A DNA stretch of 63,500 nucleotides, counting the filler, from Collodictyon triciliatum (Eukaryota), in the NCBI GenBank assembly GCA_043381765.1. It is 10 parts of 10 records of this genome, joined end to end, with 100 filler letters (N's around TTAATTAATTAA, not from the genome) between each part and the next. Parts side by side here need not be neighbours in the genome. Positions count along the whole stretch, not along the records: positions 58,623 to 63,500 come from JBHJMP010004401.1; 9 more parts are not named here. One strand, given 5' to 3'. The number at the start of each line of letters is the position of its first letter. The first letter of the stretch is position 1. The position numbers and the translations under genes are program-made. Shown here piece by piece: positions 3,126-63,500 of this stretch. A model generated the notes under the pieces. That model made no database searches. It was not told where the DNA came from and saw only the letters and a program-made list of their open reading frames with translations.

Positions 3126-4512
3126 GTGCTAGTGTTTTGTAAATGTACCGATGCCTCAAGAACTTCTGGAACTTTTTACGTTGAAGTAAGAAAAAAAAAG
3201 GATAACTAGAGTTGGCGTGCTCGCTAAAGAAGAAGCCTGTTTTCGACGTGTATAGGACTGATTGATAAAAGGAAATATATGATTAAAAATGCATATTCAG
3301 GAACGCGTATTTTTTCTTTTTTTTCTTTTTTCTCTTTTTTCTCTTTTTTCTCTTTTTTCTCTTTTTTCTCTTTTTTCTCTTTTTTCTCTTTTTTCTCTTT
3401 TTTCTCTTTTTTCTCTTTTTTCTTTTTTTCTTTTTTTCTTTTTTTCTTTTTTTCTTTTTTTCTTTTTTCTTTTACTTCTACTTTTCTTTATTTGCTGATC
3501 CTTATTAAGACTATTGAGAGAATAACTGCTCATTAGGATTTATTTTCTCTCAATGAACTGTTGAAAAGAAACCAAAAAAAAAAAAACTGCTCATTGGGAT
3601 TTAAACATTTGTTTTCCAAAGATACTCTGCTCTCATCTGAATGGCCCGAGATTATTGACTGGAAATGTCGCTCTGCTATGTTGGTGGGCCGTGTCTTTGG
3701 TTATGGTGGCGCCACGAACCGAACAAACTGCGTCTCAGACGCGTCCGCATGGCCTTGGATAACAGGTAACCGCTCGACTCTTTGCGGTGCATTCTCAAGT
3801 GTGTTTTTATATCCCAAAGCACCAGCACGGGAAATGCGTTTTCGCCACGTCCGGGTAAATTCGATCTTTTTTTTTTTCGGCGATAACATTTAGCCTAAAG
3901 TCTATCAAAAAAAAAATTGCACCGTAGCTATTACTAATTGTGGCTCTTTTTCTAATTAACAATTTAATTTTTTACCAGCCTATCTATGTGTTTGTCATTC
4001 TTTGTTACTTTTTTAAAGGCAGCTTTGTTTGCGCCCTAATGTCGAAAGAGAAAGATAATCGCCTGGTATTTCTTCTAGTACATGACTTGTTTAGTCCCCA
4101 CTATTACCACGTCAACCGAATATCATAAGTATTCTTTTGATTTCATTTAAAGTTTATGTAAAGAAAAAAGTATCTTTACAATAATAAAAAAAAAACGAAA
4201 AATACATTTGCCTCTAGGACAAAAATGAGCTGGGACAAGACAGTAGAAACCCCCCGGATTCTGTGGTTGGAGTTATTGTGTTTTGGGTGTAAGAAAAAGA
4301 AAAAAAAGATAGAAAGGAGATGAAAGTGGTCTCACAAGCAGACTATTCTACCCAAGGTGATTCAGCCCCAGTGTCTTTCTGGTTGTATTCGAGACTGATA
4401 GAAGAGCGGATAAAGTTGCCGGGTCGATGAAAGTTCGCACATGGCAGTTACTTTGAATATCGATTCCGACGAGTCCATTCAACCATCTATCTCAGACAAG
4501 GTTTACATCCTA

Positions 4513-13535: not shown

Positions 13536-16500
13536 TTGCTGAATATGATTCAGGAGAAAAACAAGTAATACTTGATTTTTTATGTCTATTTTAATGATTA
13601 AATCAGAAATCAAAATACTTTGAATCGAAGAAAAGAAAAATTGATAATAAATTGTGTATTATAGGGACGAGAAGTTTGTCTTCCTCATCGATGCCATCAA
13701 CCAAATACACCCGTCGCAAGGAACGCCAGCTCCGCATCTGCTGACCTGGTTGCCCAAAGAAACGCCACCTAATGTTGCCATGGTTGTGTCGACCATTCAT
13801 ACCCATGAATCTTGCGCGGTATTCATCATTTAATATTATTTTTTGGACATGTTTATTTTCTGCATAAAATTGATTTGAGTGGAAGGTTAATTAATCTATA
13901 TGCCACAAGTCTGCCAAGCAAAGTGGACTGGAGCCGATTCCTGTTGCCAAGTTGACCGAGGGCGAAATTAAGGATGGTGTCGAATCATTCCTCATTCGCT
14001 ATGACAAGACCCTGAACGAAAAGCAAGTTGGAATGATTCTGGCCGACATTGAAGATACAGGTCAGACATTTTTAATAGGAGTATATATTTTTATTAATTT
14101 TTTTTAAGGAATGATTAATTTATTCTTATCTGATATTTCCAAAGCCAACATCATCACCATCCTGCACAAAATTGAAAGGAAGAATAAAAAAAATATTCTT
14201 ATGTGATATTTTTTATAGGCCATCCGCTCTATCTACGCATTATTCTGGATGAGGTCAGGGTCTTTGGAGTTTATGAGAAGCTCGATGAAGAACTGAAAAC
14301 TCTGCTTTCGACGGATGGTGTTATTGAGCTTTACACTCTCATTATTAAACGCTGGCAACTGAAGTTTGACAGGAAAGGTGAGTTTTGATTTCATATTTCA
14401 AAAAAAAAAAAGGTGCAATATTATAATTGCCACTTTTATTGATTGATTCTTTTTTATTACAGTTTCCTCATCTGATGGAAAAGAGACAATGAAGGTCGAG
14501 TATGTGTCCCTCTCGATGAAGGTTCTCTTTGTCTCCCGCATCGGCCTGAGTGAAGGTGACTTGGACAAGTACATGAAAGATGCGATTGGCACAGAATTCG
14601 AGCTTGCTGAATGGTTTTCTTAATCTTGAATTTTAATATAATTAATATGTTTACTCCTTTCTTTTCTTATTTTAACTTATCTTTTATCCATTCAAACAGG
14701 AAATCCTTCTTCTTTACCCTCATCGAGTCGCTTTTCGTCCGCAATGGAAGGTTAGTGTTATTTCTCAGTCTTTTTTGTTCGTTAATCGGCGCTTTCGGTA
14801 TAATTTTATTTTGGATATAAAGCTAACTATTGTTTTCATAGATACATGTACTTCCACCAGCTGCTGTTGGAGACCACCAAAAAGGTCTACTTTTCCGAAA
14901 AGAAAGAGATGGAAAAAAGCCACGAAAAATACGGAAAATGGCTGTTTGGCCAGTATTCTGAGACTGCCGACGCAGATGAGGAGCTTGCTGCTGAGATTTG
15001 CTACCAACTTCTGAAGGGCAGTTCGTTTGAATTGCTTGTCGAATACATGAAGCAAAAACATGTAATTTTTTTTATTTTTTATTTACTCAATTACTTCAGT
15101 CATAATGAAACAATTTTCTCTGATTAAATTTTATATAATAGGTTATCAGTATCATGCTCAGTGGTCGCTATCGCTACGAATTCTTTGCATGCTGGAGAGC
15201 AATCAACGCAAGTGGAGTGGCAAACTACAAAGATGCTTATGGAAGCTTGGCCAAGGTAACTTGCTATTTAATTTTAATTTTTTGAAGGTTACTACTCACG
15301 AATTAAATTATCAATCATGATTTATCTATTAATTTTTATTTTTTTTTTATTAATTTTCAGTCTTTGGATAATGTGGGAGACCTGCTGGTTGGATTTTTCT
15401 TGGAGTCTTTTGAGAATTCGTTCTTGTTGTCTGTTCTGAATGTGCGTCTTGGAAAGCATCAGACAGAAGGTATGCAATTTATTGTCTTTTTGATGAATTT
15501 ATGTCATGAATATGAGTTTATATGGAGATATTCAATAATTTATCAATTTACAGATGCGAAGGCTGCTGATTACCTGAATCTTGGTCGTGTCTACAAGAAC
15601 CTTCAAAAGTAAAAAAAAAAAACATTATTGATTAAAATTAATACATGACATGACATGATGATTAAATCTATGATAATTTCTAAAATATAAAACTAAACAG
15701 CTGGGCTGAGTCCATGGTCTACTACAAGAGATGCCTCAATTCAGTTGAGAAAAATACAGACAATTCCCTGCGCATCGCCACCATTCACGAAGAAATGGGA
15801 ATCATCTACCAGCAACAGGACAAGTAAGGATCGTTTTCAATTGTAAATTAAATTATGAATAATGTTTCAAAAAGGAATTATTCTGATTTTCTTATTAAAC
15901 AGAATCGATGAAGCTCTTGATGAATACAAGAAATCACTGGAACTGAGAGTCAAACAACTGGGCGAGAACGACTTGCAAGTGGCCCAATCGCATGACCGCT
16001 TCGGAGACATCTACGCGAAACAGTCAAAGTAATATTTGAATCATCTATATTCGTTTTTTTTTTGCCTTTATTTTGTAAAAATATATTTATGTTGATCAAT
16101 TTTTTATGATAGGAATGAGCAGGCTCTGGTTGAATACACAAAGGCCATGGAAATCCGCCAAAAGAGAGTTGGAAACGAGCATCCTCTTGTCGCAACATCG
16201 TACCAGAACTATGGCCATGTCTCCTTGGATGGGAAAAAGTAGCACATTCATTCATTCATTAAAGACAGTTTTAAATATACTTATAATTTGAGATATTAAT
16301 ATGATTGAATCATCAAGGTATGAAGAATCTATTGAAAACTTCGAAAAGGCGAAATCAATCCTTGAAAAATCGCTGGGAGCTAAGCATGCATCTGTTGCCT
16401 CGACAATCCAGTTTATTGCGAGTGTTCATCTTGCCAGTGGAAAGTTTGGATTTCTAAACTACAGATATTTTCATAAAACAATAATTATTCAATTTGCAAA

Positions 16501-19500
16501 ATATATTTGGCATCATATCTTTCATTTGTATGGACTCTATTTGGGGTTAAGATTATGCATAATACAATACTAACTAAATAAATATCAAATAACTATCTTA
16601 TATAGGAAAACTGAGGCCTTGTCCTCATTAAAGCAATCGCTGGATATTTTCATGTCTGCCCTGGGTGAAAATCATCCCAATGTTGTGGCCTGCTATGAGA
16701 TGATTGGAGACATCAGCCATGATTTGAAGGAGTATCTCCATTTATTAATTATTATTACATATTTAATTGAAAAGAATAATTTATTTACTCTTATTATCTT
16801 AGCTTTAAGGGTGCTCTGGAGGCGTATATAAAGACGCAGGATATTCGCGTGAGAACATTGGGCGAAAGACATGCTGATTATGCTACTTGCCTGGAGAATG
16901 TTGGCCGAACAAACTTTGAGCTTCAAAGGTTTTTTTGTCTTTATATTAAAAGAAATTAAATATTTTATTAAAACCAATGAAAAAATACTTCAATAATAAC
17001 TAATGCACATACATCTAGTTCTGCTCAATGTGTTGATTGCTTCCAGAAGGCAGCTGCGTTCAGAAAGGAGACAAAGACTGCCATATCATTGAAAGATGGC
17101 TCACAAATTGACAACATTATCCGCCTCATGAAGGACAAGAAGGAGCATGAAGCCGTCATTCATCTTTACAAAACGCTGATTCATCTATTCAGCAAGCTTT
17201 ACTCCATAGATTATCTTGGAATATGGAACAGCTGCGAAGAAATCGACAAGATTTACAAGGAACTGAAGCAGCACAAGGAAGCAATGGCATTCTGGGCTGA
17301 GATGAGAGACAGATTTGCTGATAAACTTGGATGGATTCACCCCAGAACATTGAATTCGTGCGAATACTTGTCCGTCCATTCAAAAGAAATCGGAAACAAC
17401 AAAGAGCCTGTCGAGTTTACAAGAGTCAAGGAATTTATCAGTGAAACTCTTGATGATGCAAAACTGGATGAGATATGGAATCATGAGCTAATCATCGCAT
17501 TGTTATTCAGAATTGTCTACATGTCAAAGACTGATGAGAGCAAATCAAAGGCTGCATCTGATGCAATCACAGTTTTGAATTTCATGAATGTTTCGTTCGG
17601 TGGAATGGATTTATCAAACATCAAAATTCCGCATGCAAATCTCAGTAATTCAATCCTTGATGGTGCAAACCTCACTGGTGCCAACTTGGATGATGCTGAC
17701 TTCACGAATTCGATGCTTGGTGATTGTGTTTTTGATAATGCAAATATGAGTAATGCGAAATTCGGAATTCCTCATGATAAACTAGAAGGACATGCTGATT
17801 ATGTCTATAGTGTTTGCAGTATTCAAGGACCGAATGGTGAAAATTGGTTGGCTTCTGGGAGTTATGATAATACAATACGTATTTGGGATGTAGCCACAGG
17901 AAACCAAATCAAAACATTGGAAGGACATACAGAATGGGTCACTAGTGTTTGCAGCATTCAAGGACCGAATGGTGAAAAGTGGTTGGCTTCTGGGAGTTAT
18001 GATAATACAATACGTATTTGGGATGCAGCCACAGGAAGCCAAATTAAAACATTATATGGTCATACAAGGCCTGTCACTAGTGTTTGCAGTATTCAAGGAC
18101 CGAATAGTGAGAATTGGTTGGCTTCTGGAAGTAGTGATGCAACAATACGTATATGGGATGTAGCCACAGGAAGTCAAATCAATACATTAAAAGGTCATAC
18201 AAGTGGTGTCAGTAGTGTTTGCAGTATTCAAGGACCGAATGGTGAAAATTGGTTGGCTTCTGGAAGTAAAGATAACACAATACGCATTCGGGATGTAGCC
18301 ACAGGAAACCAAATCAATACATTAAAAGGTCATACAAGTGGTGTCAATAGTGTTTGCAGCATTCAAGGACCGAATGGTGAAAATTGGTTGGCTTCTGGGA
18401 GTTATGATAATACAATACGTATTTGGGATGTAGCCACAGGAAACCAAATCAAAACATTAAAAGGCCATGAAGGATACATTAAAAGTGTTTGCAGTATTCA
18501 AGGACCAAATGGTGAAAAGTGGTTGGCCTCTGGAAGTAATGATTATACAATACGTATTTGGGATATAGCCACAGGAAACCAAATCAAATCATTAGAAGGT
18601 CATACAAATGCTGTCAATAGTGTTTGCAGCATTCAAGGACCAAATGGTGAAAAGTGGTTGGCTTCTGGAAGTAATGATAAAACAATACGTATTTGGGATG
18701 TAACCACAGGAAACCAAATCAAAACATTAAAAGGTCATACAAGTCATGTCATGAGTGTTTGCAGTGTTCAAGGGCCGAATGGTGAAAATTGGCTGGCTTC
18801 AGGAAGTAGTGATTATATAATACGTATCTGGGATGTAGCCACAGGAAACCAAATCAAAACATTGGAAGGACATACAGAATCTGTCATGAGTGTTTGCAGT
18901 ATTCAAGGACCGAATGGTGAAAATTGGCTGGCTTCTGGAAGTAGTGATAATACAATACGTGTTTGGGATATAGCCACAGGAAACCAAACACACAGCCTGC
19001 AAAAATCAGAAGTGACCTACACCCAAGGAAAATACCTCGTCAAGAAAGAAAAGCCTGACGAAGTCATCGCAGTATTCAACAGGACAAGTGATGCGATGAA
19101 CATGATTGACACCAACAGAATCCAAGATGCAAGGACAGTCCAGATTATCGGCCCAAGAAAGCTGCAAGGTGGAAACATCCAAATCAGAAATGTCACAGGA
19201 TTGAGTCAATTTAACAAGACCATTCTACTTTCAATCGGTGCTGCTTCCTTTGATGCGGACTTTGCTGCGTATTGTGAGCAGGGTAAGTTCACGAAGTTCC
19301 AGGCTCAGATGATGGCTGAGTGCTGTGAGAACGGGTGGGGTGTTGAGAAAGACACTGAGAAGGCCTATTATTGGAGATATGTCGCCTTTCCAAAATTATC
19401 ATTAGACTTTGATGGATTGAAACAACTTGCACAACAAGGCTCAAAAGATGCATTCAGTATTTTGAAAGAATTTGCTGAAATGAAGGATAGATGGGAAGAA

Positions 19501-19812
19501 TACAAATATCCACAAGCTGTTTCTGTTGTTGCTGAATGTTATGACAATGGATGGAGTGTTGAGAAGGACACCGTGAAAGCAGCTGACTGGCTTGGAAAAG
19601 CTGAAAACTTTGAAAAATTGAAGCAACTAGCACAACAAGGCTCAAAAGATGCATTCAATGTTTTGAAAGAAATGGCTGAAATGAAGGATAGATGGGAAGA
19701 ATACAAATATCCACAAGCTGTTTCTGTTGTTGCTGAATGCTATGAGAATGGATGGGGTGTTGAGAAGGACACCGAGAAAGCAGCTGAGTGGAGACAGAAA
19801 GCCTCAGCTTAA
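13536..19812 (+). CDS. STAND/NLR-like protein, 5'-partial: NACHT C-terminal half (NPHP3/TTC41-type) + TPR repeats + pentapeptide repeats + 9 WD40 + SEL1-like repeats
   Basis: Walker B region FVFLIDAINQI...LLTWLPKETPPNVAMVVST (13665-13818). GHPLYLRIILDEVRVFGVYEKLDE (14219-14290). Many short TPR exons (e.g. ESIENFEKAKSILEKSLGAKHASVAST, LGENHPNVVACYEMIG). Then one 2.8 kb terminal exon, 17019-19812. Confidence 0.85.
14121..14210 (+). mobile_element. 56-nt family-2 retroinsertion (14138-14193) with 17-bp TSD (1 mismatch), in an intron
   Basis: tattcttatctgatatt [...ctgcacaaaattgaaaggaagaataaaaaaaa] tattcttatgtgatatt. Confidence 0.75.
17782..18996 (+). repeat. Nine tandem 135-bp (45-aa) WD40 units with high nucleotide identity
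   Basis: Consensus GHTxxVxSVCSIQGPNGE(N/K)WLASGSxDxTIRIWDVATGNQIKTLx, counted 9 times in the translation. Confidence 0.95.
19417..19809 (+). repeat. Tandem 201-bp duplication encoding SEL1-like repeats
   Basis: LKQLAQQGSKDAF...YPQAVSVVAECY(D/E)NGW(S/G)VEKDT(V/E)KAA(D/E)W occurs twice (units start 19417 and 19618), plus an upstream diverged copy AECCENGWGVEKDTEKAYYW. Confidence 0.9.
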
Positions 19813-53204: not shown

Positions 53205-53740
53205 ATTTTTTTTTTATATTTCCTTTCAGTTTATACAAAGTGGAGGTTGTATTGTTCTGAAAGAGTCCATAATCGATTTTTAAACACGACTTTGCTTGTT
53301 GTTGAAGAGAGGCTCATTCTCTTGAACCCATTTCAAACTGGTTTGTTACAGCAACAATACCAACTCGCTTTTCCATAAAAATGTAATAGAGGGAGGTTTT
53401 TGTACTGATTCGTCGGAATTCGTTTGCTCGAGCACTAATCAGGGACTTGAGACGAAGAAGTTGTCGGTTATCGGAAATTGTATCCTGTGGGTTGGCCTGT
53501 AATCTGGGTCTTGTGCTTGCATCAAAGAGATAAGGCGAGGTTTAGTCTCTTTTCAGCCTTCTTTATGGATGTCTTTTCTCATAGGATGTTTGTAATTACG
53601 AACGTGGATGTGGCGAAGTAGGCCTTGATGAAAGAGAATTGTATGATGTCATCTAGTCTATATCGGCTATGGTGGGTGAGTGTTAAATCTTGAAATTCTT
53701 CAATTCTATACTTATAAATATTGAATAGGATGTTACTGAA
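53205..53740 (-). mobile_element. Degenerate poly(A)-tailed fragment sharing the family-2 3' tail
   Basis: Ends ctttgtataaactgaaaggaaatat(a)n. Upstream is stop- and frameshift-ridden coding-like sequence. Confidence 0.35.
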
Positions 53741-58622: not shown

Positions 58623-58712
<90 letters not shown>

Positions 58713-59882
58713 TCCTCTTGCACAAATTGAGAGGAATGATTTTTTTTTAAAAAAAATCTTAGATGGTTGATGGATTTTCAATTTACAATAATCATAGGTT
58801 GTGGTTTGTTCAAAGTATTTATTAGTATTCTTGTTGTTTAAGTAGTCGAGTTTAAGACTCATATTAATGTAGCTCCTTTTTCGTGAATAAAATCGGACTA
58901 TAGGTCTACAACGTAGTCGAAATATTTGCATCGTCGAAAGGTAAATGCGAAAGTAAGTAGATAAAGTGAAATCGAATACGAGGCAATGTTGATCCTGCGT
59001 CTTGGCAACCCGAAGCCCGCTTCGCACAAAAGAAACGCATAAATTATATATTCCGCAAATAGGTTAAAGAATTATACTTCCACATATGTCGTTTTGCCAA
59101 ACCATACTGTTGAAGAAGGATTGCTCCGGGATAATGGGAGCACAGGAAATATCAAGTTCCCTCTAGAAAGGAATAAAAAATAGCCCTGAACTTGGGCACA
59201 CCTCTTTTCCCATGACCTAACCGACATCCAATTCAAAATTCGATTGACAGATTCACCCACCGCCGCGCAACCTCCAACTTTCGTCCTAATTTGTCATGAA
59301 GCAACCTTTCAGTCGACCAACCAGCACTTGCAGCAACAAAGCGCACCAATCGCACACACCCGCATCAATCTTCACTCGTTCTTTTTCATATATCTGAGGG
59401 ACTTACAAGAGGCTTATACACAACCTCCAGCGCCTAGTTTTTTTTTTAGAGTGATTCATTTTACAGACACGAGTAGTCGAGGGTGGTGTTGGTCTGGCTG
59501 CTGATCGTGAAAGCAAGGAGCGTTTTATGTCGGTTGTTTGATCGGCCTGGTTTTATTTGGGTGGGGTTAGGCCCTTCGAAGCATCTGCAGCCCGCGTTTA
59601 TTGTTTTTCTCTCAGGGCTGATCTTTTTACGACTCCATTTCACTACCACAAAATAAAGAATTGCTTCTTTTTTATTTTAGAAAAGAAACTGGACTATTAT
59701 GCATCTTCACTGACGCAATCCTTCAATACATATGAATACGTAGAAGACAGAGAGCATATATTCCTTCATTCTTTCCAGGTAAGAGCGAATATACGTATAT
59801 ATTTATTAAAAATGCGTCCATTTCTCATCATATTACGAGACTTGTTGCAAATTAGCATTTTTTACTTCGTATACGTATATGT

Positions 59883-60003
<121 letters not shown>

Positions 60004-60893
60004 GACGATGACATCTTCTACTTCAATATGAAGGTATTAAAGTGTTTGACGGCCTTTACATATCAGCAATTACGCTCTCAGCTGCTCTTTTTGTTATCAG
60101 TAATATATGAGCCTTTACTTTCTAATCATGTATTATTTATACTATGCCTCTTAATCCACTACACTATCATATTAAAATCGCTAAAAAGTATGGCCTACAG
60201 TCAAGCGATATGAATAGGCTTCCTAGTTAAGGTATTGAGTTTATTTGTATCAAGTTGAACGAAACACAGCTGCTGGATAATTTTTAAAGCCTTGGGTATG
60301 CAGTAAAATTGTATAAAATTATCTCATTTGAAACAATCATTGATTTACCAAGTTATTTTTCTCTAATTGATATAAATTTTAACGCATATGCACCAAAATG
60401 CAAAGGCGTGAGTAACCAGGGACTATATACCATTTTACATAATCAAAATGTGTTTTTGAACAACATGCATCATTAATGCCATCCCTTTGATCAAATAATA
60501 TATATATTATGTGTGCGGGTGTGAGGGGTTTAAAGTTTATATATAATGTGATATCAGCCGAGCATTTCTTAAATATATACTTGTTTATAAACGAGTCTTT
60601 CGGGCATAATTTCTTCTATACAACCCTACATTATTTTTAAAAATCAGTAGTGAATTAATATTCAATATAATTGGGTCTACTCTAAAGAATAATTTGGTTG
60701 GGTCAACTTTTAAAAAAGCTTTTTATTCAGAATGGGATTTATCGTACACAAAAGTTTAATTATACTTCAATTACATACACCGTGGGATGTTCTTGATTGG
60801 AAATATATATTCGACTAATATTGGAGAAATAAAGTGATTAAAAAAACTAGAGAATAACAAGCCTTTACTCTTATAGACGAAGAACTCTGAAGA

Positions 60894-63380
60894 ATGTCCG
60901 AAAGTAAATCAAGCACCGAGACTAATTTTAATTTAGTCACTGTTGATGATGTGAGTTCATAATTTACTTACAGTTTTCGTTCTTTATTTTTTTTGAAAAA
61001 TATGTTTCATTTCCGTAACTTGACTCCTCTGCTGAATACAGGCTGTCCTCGAGTGGGTTAATTACCATCTAGGAAAAATTGAGCTCAAGGCGAAGAACAT
61101 TCGCGACGATTTCATGGATGGATTCTTTTTGGCCATGTTGATAGAGATGGTCACCGCAAAATCCTTGGGGAGTTACCATTCCCGATTGTTTGCGTATGCT
61201 TTACAACTTTATTAAACGTACACCATTATTTGATTTTGGATTACTGAATTTTGGATACTCTATTAACAAATAGCGACGAAGCCATTGAAGGGGAGATTCT
61301 CGTGGAAGAGAATCAAAAGCTCATAGCTGATTGGTTTTTGAAATCTGGCGTATGCGATGAGGCTATCGCTCCTGATGTCTGTTATCCGGGTCAGGATTAC
61401 TTCCTTGTATAATTTCTGTTCGCGCTTACAGATTCTTTAAGACATACAGCTGATATATTTCCATAGATTTGATTGATTCCATCATCTGGTACCTTATTGT
61501 AAGAAGTGTTGGTCATCTGGGAAGTCTTAAGGTAATATGAATTTTTTGCTTTACTAAGGTGATTTCAAAAAAAACTATGAGTGATATACAGTTCGAAAAA
61601 AAAAAAAAACAGCTAATCTTCGAATATAGAAAAAGTGCCGTGAAAGGTATGAAATTTCCAAGATTCTGTATGAAAGAACGAAAGCTCCATTCCCGTTTCA
61701 AGGCAAGTTTTTATAATCCTTTCATTTTTTTGAAAATTATGAATTTCTATGAAATTTCATAAAAGAAAAATATTCGTATTGAGGCTAAAAATTCAAATAT
61801 AACATTATCAGGATTTGGTTTGGAGGATAAAGGCTCTGTGGTCCTTGTCCGCACTTGCATCCTTCTTGAAAAGGTATACATGGAAAAGTTAGAATTAATT
61901 CTCACATGAACTCTAGTCACCTTTTATTCAATCAATTTGAAAAAAAATATCAATCCATTTACAAAATCAGATGAAACTCGCCCGAGAAGACTTGAAGGAA
62001 AGACAATACAAAAAGTGGAATCCAGCGCCACAGAGATACGAAACTGCTACAAAATTGCCTACAATCGTTTTTGATGAGCGCGTAATTCGCGTATTCCTAT
62101 CATCCACTTTTCGTGACATGCAACGAGAAAGAGATGAGTTCTTCAAGCACGGAGCTCCAGAGTAATTTTTATTTCATAATGCTGTTTTCCGCGTCATATA
62201 AACACACTTTTGGGCAAATTTTATCTTGAATGTTTTTAGGTTGAAAAAGTTTGCGAAATCAAAAGGACTGGATCTCGTTTTCATTGATTTACGCTGGGGA
62301 CTGACTTCAGAAGACAGCAGTGAAGGATGGGTGAAAATTCCTTGATTTATTTCCCTAAAAATAATTTTTTACTTCTAAATAACTAATCGCTCATTTATAG
62401 GTTGTAATTCGCTGCTTGGACTCCATTGGAAAATGCCCATACTTTGTGTGCTCCCTCGGTGCGCGTTATGGTTGGATTCCCGACCAAAACAAAACTGAGT
62501 TGAATAAAGAAGCCCGCCTAGAGGAAATGATGAAAATCAATCCTAGTGCTGCTGTGAAGGATGTTTGGGTGGAATGGCACAGCGAGACAAACGCTCGCTT
62601 CCCTTTCATTAATGAAATACCTGGGCTAAGTGTGACAGAGTATGAGGTAAATCTAGTTGATGAGTTTTCATTTATCTATTCAAGTAAAATCGAAATAATA
62701 GCCGTCATGGATAGTAAATGTAATCTTTTTAGATTCAATATGCCTGCCTGATCGGCAAACCAGCATGCAGCCGTGCCTTTTTCTATCTTCGCGATGAGGA
62801 ATATGCCATCCGACACGCCAAGAACGAGGAAGAGAGAAAATTGTTTCAAGCCGAAAGTGAAGAGGCTGTAAAAATTCGTTAAAAATTAACCATAAGCATT
62901 TCATGATATTACAAGAGAATTAAATTCATTTTATTTCTTGCAGCGTACAAGACAGGAGGAGCTCAAAGAAAAAGTCAAGGCTAAATACGGTCACATAGTC
63001 TATAAAGGGGCAAAAGAATACTCTGACTTTGTAACTTACCATCTGACCTATGCCATCGAACGAGACTTTGGACATCATATTGTAATCTTCTCATCAAATC
63101 ATAAATATTTTATTATTTTTTTTAAAAAAAATAATGCTTTTCTGCCACCCGGACATCAAGAAGCGCCCATGCAAATGACGGCTAACGAACCAAATCCATA
63201 ATCCTCATTATCTTGTACAAATTGAAAGGAACAATAAAAAAATTTGTTGATAAAAATAATGTCCAACCAAATAATAACTAGGCGAGAAACCCAGAAGACC
63301 AAGCACAATATCAGTTCAAAATGCACCGACTGGCTGGTTTCGGTGGAAGAGAGGAGCTCCTAAAGAGAATCATGGAGCAA
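60894..63380 (+). CDS. Calponin-homology + DUF4062 protein leading into a NACHT domain (NPHP3/TEP1/NWD1-type), 3'-partial, multi-exon
   Basis: CH: AVLEWVNYHLGK...NIRDDFMDGFFLAMLIEMVTAKSL...LIDSIIWYLI. DUF4062: IRVFLSSTFRDMQRERDEF...FIDLRWGLT...RCLDSIGKCPYFVCSLGARYGWIP...SVTEYEI. Ends FGGREELLKRI, the motif that precedes a NACHT Walker A. Confidence 0.85.
63137..63242 (+). mobile_element. About 105-nt family-2 retroinsertion in an intron
   Basis: Encodes ...PMQMTANEPNP* then cttgtacaaattgaaaggaacaataaaaaaa; degenerate flanking repeat (aaaaataatg). Confidence 0.6.
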
Positions 63381-63425
63381 GTGAGTTTCTTGTCATTAAA
63401 AATGGAGAATGTCCTTCGAAGCCAG

Positions 63426-63478
<53 letters not shown>

Positions 63479-63500
63479 CTTTTTATTTTTTTTTTTTTTT

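Follow-up and report, generated by a model that had tools for sequence, protein, structure and literature searches.

The last piece of a 63,500-nucleotide (nt) stretch of DNA from Collodictyon triciliatum, hereafter the window, raises the question of whether a calponin-homology (CH) domain of the cytoskeletal type stands at the head of a gene for a protein resembling receptors with a nucleotide-binding domain and leucine-rich repeats (NLRs), and of what such a protein would do. The gene lies on the piece at 58623-63500, cut short where the window stops, and positions 60894-63380 on the plus strand are the expressed 5′ part of an intron-rich eukaryotic gene. We estimate at roughly 60% the probability that this is the 5′ half of an NLR-like gene of the STAND class (ATPases for signal transduction that have numerous domains), whose product would join a CH domain to a NIR domain (DUF4062 in Pfam) that cleaves nicotinamide adenine dinucleotide (NAD+), and would work as a sensor that depletes NAD+; its immune role, oligomerisation, NADase activity and binding to the cytoskeleton are all putative.

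Twelve exons separated by 11 introns give an open frame of 1425 nt, or 475 codons. The frame starts with an ATG at 60894, preceded two codons earlier by an in-frame TGA (60888-60890), and ends at 63380 ahead of a GTGAGT donor. Four public runs (X1 to X4) were compared with positions 60100-63425, of which X3 and X4 are metagenome DNA, X3 being from freshwater. All 11 introns were seen as joints in spliced contigs (10 of the 11 in X1 and seven in X2). No such joint occurred in X3 or X4, which contained collinear exon-intron pieces instead, for example at 62111-62381 and 61113-61263. The RNA status of X1 and X2 is not stated in their records and was assigned from these contigs: both runs contain the spliced form and were therefore treated as RNA-derived. 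Ten introns are of the GT-AG type and measure 70-200 nt, whereas the intron at 61703-61811 is GC-AG; its joint, reported as 61700>61810 with three ambiguous letters in both X1 and X2, was resolved against the sequence.

The preliminary description of this DNA had noted a CH-like N-terminus followed by DUF4062, and the spliced contigs bear this out. The first X1 record (752 nt) extends from CH exon 2, by way of exons 3-6, to NIR exons 7 and 8, and the CH and DUF4062 parts are therefore present in one transcript contig. The second X1 record contains exons 9-12, followed by 135 nt beyond 63382 that are absent from the window; the first 30 letters past exon 12 read in frame and resemble the stretch that precedes the P-loop in related proteins. 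A pseudogene, or an artefact of assembly or annotation such as the merging of two neighbouring genes, is a very improbable and largely refuted explanation of this locus. The unspliced X2 contigs found upstream of the start could be cited in its favour, as could the score of exon 2 alone against the Pfam CH family (24.1 bits for a cut-off of 26), but the 475 codons contain no stop, all splice joints are present, one contig spans CH to NIR, and the fusion recurs in two Diphylleia rotans transcripts and in one Collodictyon fragment (P0044). The X2 contigs in question are collinear, of low depth and located at 60100-60830; they could be a long 5′ untranslated region, unprocessed RNA or carried-over DNA.

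By sequence comparison, the closest relatives of the gene are in Diphylleia and Collodictyon, which are freshwater flagellates. The spliced window protein shares 54% identity over 459 residues with P0006 (Diphylleia rotans, EukProt EP00002 P032243, 2619 residues) and 49% over 455 residues with P0001 (EP00002 P039414, 1245 residues), the latter first found by a word-index search with exon 9. Both are transcript-derived and carry CH, DUF4062 and NACHT/nSTAND1 in a single protein, and P0001 passes the Pfam cut-offs for NACHT (27.4 bits for a cut-off of 26.7) and nSTAND1 (32 for 27.1). P0006, P0001 and P0044 show the domain order of the window gene, namely CH, linker, NIR and then NACHT onward; they are undescribed transcriptome predictions, and their identity is too low for them to be the same gene. 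On P0006 the order continues as CH, DUF4062, NACHT, TPR, pentapeptide, WD40 and Sel1, so that the complete architecture put forward in the preliminary description stands on one relative protein, whereas for the gene studied here it rests on an unproven link to another contig. The N-termini of the family differ: P0006 has two CH stretches and an N-terminus of 180 residues, P0001 has a low-complexity N-terminus of 270 residues, and the window gene has a leader of 19 residues. The second CH-like stretch of P0006 (residues 1-120) lies ahead of its main CH domain and the N-terminal region of P0001 (residues 1-270) resembles a coiled coil; the window gene has neither, and no upstream exon matching the long P0001 or P0006 N-termini was found at E<0.4.

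A HMMER search of 1.84 billion representative sequences with the CH-to-NIR part of P0001 returned 7912 proteins at E<=0.001. Among the best 150 of these, only P0006 matched from the CH domain onward (query residues 9-471, 62% identity); P0044, from Collodictyon triciliatum, and P0015 reached the C-terminal half of the CH domain or the linker, and the other 147 started at or after query residue 167. The CH-NIR fusion therefore looks confined to this lineage among the best 150 of the 7912 proteins, and weaker fusions may rank lower. A search of the ESM Atlas gave DUF4062 clusters alone, at scores of 0.78-0.79 that lie below the meaningful level, and none with a CH domain. Searches against PADLOC and NCBIfam gave weak Avs1b matches alone, and these fell on the P0001 STAND module (E 5e-6).

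We then considered how well each of the two domains can be assigned. When nine single-exon translations were scanned against Pfam, three of them (exons 2, 7 and 9) produced matches and the other six none. Exon 2 matched the CH family (PF00307) at the score given above, and the relatives pass the CH cut-off, with 47.1 bits for P0006, in two stretches, and 34.1 bits for P0001. A phmmer search of the PDB with the P0001 segment retrieved 42 sequences at E<=1, 40 of which were CH-domain proteins; the best matches were plectin, alpha-actinin-4 and MACF1, over about 100 residues and with E values of 4e-6 to 6e-5. In the tandem-CH entries among the matches listed, the P0001 segment aligned with the first CH domain. 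The signature Trp and the DG..L..L motifs of the domain are present in the alignment, and the domain is followed by a helical linker of about 80 residues in which Pfam finds no CH match. These results suggest that the CH domain is of the CH1 type of actin-binding domains, closest to the CH1 of plectin and alpha-actinin. In plectin, alpha-actinin, filamin, spectrin and MACF1, whose first CH is the best solved match, the CH domains come in tandem, whereas the window gene encodes a single CH domain after 19 residues, followed by the 80 helical residues; no CH1+CH2 pair and no homologous upstream exon were found. CH1 alone can bind F-actin weakly. Possible roles of the domain are actin anchoring, service as a decoy, or that of a plain interaction module.

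The NIR domain is better defined. Exon 9 alone passes the Pfam DUF4062 (PF13271) cut-off (24.7 bits), and exon 7 adds 20.2 bits; P0001 scores 42.9 bits, above the cut-off, whereas the 25 families listed for P0006 do not include DUF4062. The NIR part matched the TIR-like structure of human TEP1 (11gz_A) with E values of 1.6e-16 as a single sequence and 3.8e-61 as a profile. All 36 near-invariant family positions that were tested are kept in the window protein. With the numbering of 11gz_A offset by 893 (chain residue 1 being TEP1 residue 894), R908 and R976 of TEP1 fall on the arginines of the STFRD and RYG motifs, and the window protein possesses both of these active-site residues. Under the same offset, the second Glu of the SVTEYE motif aligns with chain residue 115, that is, E1008. 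In a 70-row family alignment of this S-x-T-E-x-E motif, 69 rows keep the second Glu and 63 keep the first. Since the catalytic Glu, both Arg and the near-invariant positions are kept, the NIR domain looks catalytically competent, and its product would be a predicted NADase.

Structural modelling agrees with the preliminary description of DUF4062 as an effector with a fold like that of TIR domains and nucleoside deoxyribosyltransferases. The NIR part of the AlphaFold model of the P0001 segment has a predicted local distance difference test (pLDDT) score above 90. In VIA-align, this NIR model matched TIR domains with Z scores of 9.8-10.0 (root mean square deviation 3.4-3.6 over 137-141 residues), the CMP N-glycosidase MilB with a Z score of 9.3 and nucleoside deoxyribosyltransferases with a Z score of 8.9. 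Foldseek with the whole P0001-segment model gave no row at E<=0.001 and only weak rows otherwise, although those for TIR and CMP-glycosidase had a probability of 0.92-0.98. The effector function itself comes from experiments in two 2026 preprints (10.64898/2026.05.01.722283; 10.64898/2026.09.04.749371), in which DUF4062, now called NIR, was shown to hydrolyse NAD+ both in human TEP1 and in proteins of bacterial defence. This NADase activity depends on one Glu, which is E1008 in TEP1, E108 in PsAvs2 and E97 in KpSwz, and in TEP1 R908 and R976 contribute to it (10.64898/2026.05.01.722283).

Two further features of the NIR region concern its variation. The segment between the RYG and SVTE motifs measures about 49 residues in the window family, as measured in P0006, versus about 20 residues in a metagenome locus (L001) described below. 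In the conserved RYG part of exon 9, at 62399-62495, six short X3 contigs stack with two to six differences each, and X2 depth peaks at 40, as compared with about 6-12 elsewhere; both observations point to several paralogues or related strains.

Proteins with a similar core are known from both eukaryotes and bacteria. Most eukaryotic NIR proteins are stated to be NLR-like (10.64898/2026.05.01.722283; 10.64898/2026.09.04.749371), and NIR-containing NLR-like proteins were found to be widespread in eukaryotes by a EukProt search (10.64898/2026.09.04.749371). TEP1, NWD1, NWD2 and NPHP3 resemble the window family in that a NIR domain immediately precedes a STAND ATPase of the NACHT type, after which come WD40 or TPR repeats. 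No CH domain is reported for these human NIR-NACHT proteins in the accessible part of the sources, TEP1 having TROVE and vWA domains upstream, and the window family adds pentapeptide and Sel1 repeats. In bacteria, activation of the NIR systems PsAvs2, Swarozyc/KpSwz, Vulcan and Vesta depletes NAD+ (10.64898/2026.09.04.749371; 10.64898/2026.05.01.722283). In PsAvs2, as in the predicted architecture of this family, a NIR NADase effector at the N-terminus is combined with a STAND ATPase and, at the C-terminus, with sensor repeats. These bacterial systems differ in being prokaryotic and intron-less, in lacking a CH domain and in having other sensors, and the homology of the STAND modules is supported up to the superfamily level. 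Plant NLRs with integrated domains likewise carry an unusual extra domain on an NLR-like core, and fungal NLRs have highly similar WD40 repeats, as does the contig at 13536-20203 (87% at the DNA level); in both cases the lineages and the clades of nucleoside triphosphatase differ.

Bacterial Avs-NIR proteins and human TEP1 suggest, by analogy, a likely mechanism for the sensor. The C-terminal repeats, which in the relatives are TPR, pentapeptide, WD40 and Sel1, would bind a trigger, upon which the NACHT module would oligomerise. The NIR domains would thereby be brought together and would hydrolyse NAD+ in a proximity-induced manner, and with the loss of NAD+ the infected or damaged cell would stop growing or die. 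The CH domain may hold the receptor on actin filaments, or may bait factors that attack them. The model is based on PsAvs2 and on the concentration-dependent activation of the TEP1 domain (10.64898/2026.09.04.749371; 10.64898/2026.05.01.722283). The preliminary description went one step further and proposed a receptor guarding the cytoskeleton, which is speculation. Spelled out, this would be a cytoskeleton-coupled NADase immune receptor, held on actin filaments by its CH domain or using that domain to imitate an actin-binding target; a virus, an intracellular parasite or a toxin from prey that disturbs the cytoskeleton would set off oligomerisation of NACHT and a collapse of NAD+ driven by NIR. 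The design would be an integrated decoy or guard that arose independently in deep-branching protists; we regard this elaborate version as rather improbable.

Several observations weigh against the NAD+-depleting sensor. The CH part is of low confidence in both structure models, with pLDDT values of 37-64 in the P0001 segment and of 53-80 in a model of the CH region, and the latter model (mean pLDDT 52.8) is too poor for a firm fold call. Foldseek with the CH-region model placed the actin-binding domains of filamin, utrophin and actinin in its top rows, but weakly (E 0.13-1). A lone CH domain, as opposed to a classical tandem pair, is no proven actin binder. The P-loop exon and all the sensor repeats lie outside the contig, so that the STAND part of this gene is known from the 30 letters of an RNA contig and from the relatives. 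The records of X1 and X2 give only a guess that these runs are RNA, the spliced contigs being the grounds for using them as such. Lastly, the NIR domains of three of the four human proteins (NWD1, NWD2 and NPHP3) had no NADase activity under the conditions tested, and roles in protein-protein interaction were raised by the authors (10.64898/2026.05.01.722283; 10.64898/2026.09.04.749371).

This last result would also fit the main functional rival, a constitutive cytoskeletal or ciliary scaffold comparable to NPHP3 or NWD1, in which the NIR domain would be non-catalytic and the CH domain a plain means of attachment. P0001 has a weak match to NPHP3_N (E 5.9e-4, below the cut-off), and P0007 matches both NPHP3_N and TPR_NPHP3. 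Diphylleia and Collodictyon, the sources of the closest named relatives, are flagellates whose cytoskeleton is elaborate, which counts for a scaffold. We nevertheless consider it unlikely, since the catalytic Glu and both Arg are kept and the family comprises several copies, whose N-termini vary and whose tandem WD40 units are nearly identical. Such a pattern of diversification is more typical of receptors, as in the repeats of fungal NLRs. The near-identical WD40 units, the variable N-termini of the paralogues and the multi-copy family thus fit a diversifying receptor family, in line with the sensor outlined above.

In a literature search we found no paper that appears to describe a CH domain on a NIR-NACHT protein, the papers retrieved being, to judge by title and the start of the abstract, unrelated studies of proteomics or gene lists, although the supplementary architecture tables of the two preprints could list CH-NIR proteins. 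The main text of either preprint contains neither calponin nor cytoskeleton, and a lone match to a word starting with actin in one of them (10.64898/2026.09.04.749371) does not concern actin. The class is already known, and a public transcriptome set already includes its closest members here; what is unusual is the CH domain at the N-terminus. NIR was shown only in 2026 to be an NAD+-cleaving effector common to antiphage systems and eukaryotic NLR-like proteins, and the present transcribed family places a cytoskeleton-type CH domain ahead of an apparently competent NIR domain in flagellates far from animals, plants and fungi. If the CH domain does tie NAD+ depletion to the state of actin, it would offer a testable form of guard-type immunity outside plants, and would also help to learn what is sensed by eukaryotic NIR-NLRs. 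If it does not, the locus is still an annotation case, with complementary family contigs and a model of 12 short exons that includes a GC-AG intron.

The second question is whether the missing 3′ half is present in the window. As stated in the preliminary description, the contig ends just before the Walker A motif: exon 12, which encodes the helix ahead of the NACHT P-loop, aligns with residues 689-722 of P0001 and 608-640 of P0006, the GIGKS P-loop follows about 20-25 residues later in both relatives, and the P-loop is in the next exon, past the window end. The contig at 13536-20203, the third piece of the window, opens with 29 nt of an exon before a GTAATA donor and begins, again as described, just before Walker B; the FVFLIDA motif is encoded at 13666-13815, in an exon that aligns with P0001 827-876. 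In Pfam, this contig matches pentapeptide (E 1.3e-20), Sel1 (E 2.9e-18) and WD40 repeats, and it contains TPR-like helices too. Its WD40 array (17802-18988) is made of 8.8 copies of a 135-nt unit with 87% matches. The Sel1-like end at 19416-19791 consists of 1.9 copies of a 201-nt unit with 93% matches. The tandem WD40 and Sel1 units look like the product of recent amplification or homogenisation of sensor repeats.

Judged by their alignment with the relatives, the two contigs complement each other as parts of one gene family. The preliminary description suggested, beyond this, that they are halves of the same gene, which would be split by an assembly gap holding the P-loop exon or exons. In support of a single gene, the relatives are collinear across the two contigs without overlap (residues 272-722 of P0001 on this contig and 827-1245 on the other; for P0006, 189-640 and 745-2608 respectively), the contig at 13536-20203 starts inside an exon, so that its gene also lacks a 5′ part, and tblastn with P0001 and P0006 revealed no other family member in the window. 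However, neither contig contains a stretch of about 94-104 residues that includes the P-loop. The family is multi-copy, with at least three close D. rotans paralogues (P0001, P0006 and P0011), and the six variant X3 contigs at 62399-62495 point the same way. Four different public fragments of the Walker A exon (P0158-P0161) come from other family members, and the two that reach the start of that exon, P0158 and P0159, mismatch the 10 residues after exon 12 in the X1 contig.

The retro-insert that the preliminary description saw in both contigs is a shared element, but the match amounts to 54 nt at 81% identity with a dispersed repeat. This repeat, of about 50 nt, ends in an A-run and lies in introns of both NLR contigs at non-equivalent positions, with part of it also on a third contig. 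In X1, X2 and X4, contigs match the piece at 63190-63242 alone, with a loose end on either side and unrelated flanks. The organisation of the window does not help either. It is a chain of about 10 small scaffolds with N/TTAATTAATTAA linkers between them; of the nine pieces that are complete, eight measure 6658-6668 nt and one 4409 nt, and most pieces terminate in microsatellites. Such near-equal sizes suggest a length-sorted file, in which adjoining pieces need not be genome neighbours or be linked. The window thus resembles a length-sorted short-read assembly, in which the order of the pieces is no positional information.

The transcript link to position 13536 that had been proposed as a check was not found: the X1 contig stops 135 nt past exon 12, and the search for a read, contig or protein across the gap found none. 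A word-index search with the Walker B exon yielded no longer protein among two candidates, and a search with residues 600-800 of P0006 for shorter proteins gave nine matches among 1064 candidates, none of which bridged the gap. A metagenome scan with the alignment of Walker A fragments matched 116 stretches, of which one locus (L001) was confirmed, and this locus is unrelated to the gap. At 3454-4341, L001 contains an intron-less DUF4062-STAND gene of 54% GC with 31% identity to P0006 over 337 residues. Because the family is multi-copy, the shared repeat is dispersed and the bridging attempts failed, the identity of the two contigs as one gene is unproven; we hold it as a tentative possibility, and it is somewhat more likely that the contig at 13536-20203 is the 3′ part of a paralogue. 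The coordinates of all features are collected in Table 1.

Table 1. Exons and motifs of the CH-NIR gene and features of the related contig, in window positions. Joints are given as last position of one exon > first position of the next.
Feature	Position	Strand	Content and evidence
Exon 1	60894-60950	+	Start codon and 19-residue leader; joint 60950>61042 with GT..AG ends in one X2 contig
Exon 2	61042-61193	+	N-terminal part of CH; Pfam CH E 4.3e-5, CH_2 E 0.0013; 55% identity with P0006 189-239; both flanking joints seen
Exon 3	61274-61389	+	Middle of CH; joints 61193>61274 and 61389>61467 in X1 record 1; aligns to the CH of P0006 and P0001
Exon 4	61467-61531	+	Final CH helix with conserved Trp; X1 joints, alignment
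Exon 5	61630-61702	+	Helical linker; X1 joint 61531>61630; followed by the GC-AG intron
Exon 6	61812-61873	+	Helical linker; X1 and X2 joints; needed to keep the frame open
Exon 7	61971-62161	+	End of linker, start of NIR/DUF4062 at about 62082, STFRD motif; Pfam DUF4062 E 6.8e-4; tblastn matches with P0001 and P0006; joints in X1 and X2
Exon 8	62240-62330	+	NIR, DLRWG motif; X1 and X2 joints; near-invariant family columns retained
Exon 9	62401-62646	+	NIR core with RYG motif, family-specific insert and catalytic motif; Pfam DUF4062 E 1.8e-5, 25.3 bits; 70% identity with P0006, 63% with P0001
SVTEYE motif	62629-62646	+	Second Glu (62644-62646) is the counterpart of the TEP1 catalytic Glu E1008; profile alignment with 11gz_A
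Exon 10	62733-62867	+	C-terminal part of NIR; X1 and X2 joints; 71% identity with P0006
Exon 11	62944-63081	+	Helical region after NIR; joints, tblastn
Short dispersed repeat, intron 11	63190-63242	.	54 nt, 81% identity with 14139-14192; partial copy at 53209-53238
Exon 12	63282-63380	+	Pre-NACHT segment, last coding exon in the window; X1 joint 63081>63282; 59-64% identity with P0001 689-722 and P0006 608-640
Start of intron 12	63381-63500	+	GTGAGT donor, long poly-T run to the window end; loose contig end at 63382
3′ part of a family member, other contig	13536-19812	+	Walker B, winged-helix/TPR, pentapeptide, WD40, Sel1; tblastn with P0001 827-1245 and P0006 745-2608

Some bins of the compared region had no cover in X1 or X2, and nothing was inferred from them. 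The DNA of the locus is AT-rich as well as intron-rich and is therefore eukaryotic; a scan for bacterial promoters and terminators, which is irrelevant to such DNA, stayed at chance level. A long microsatellite of the TA/TG type was also observed at 59884-60003, about 0.9 kb upstream of the gene.

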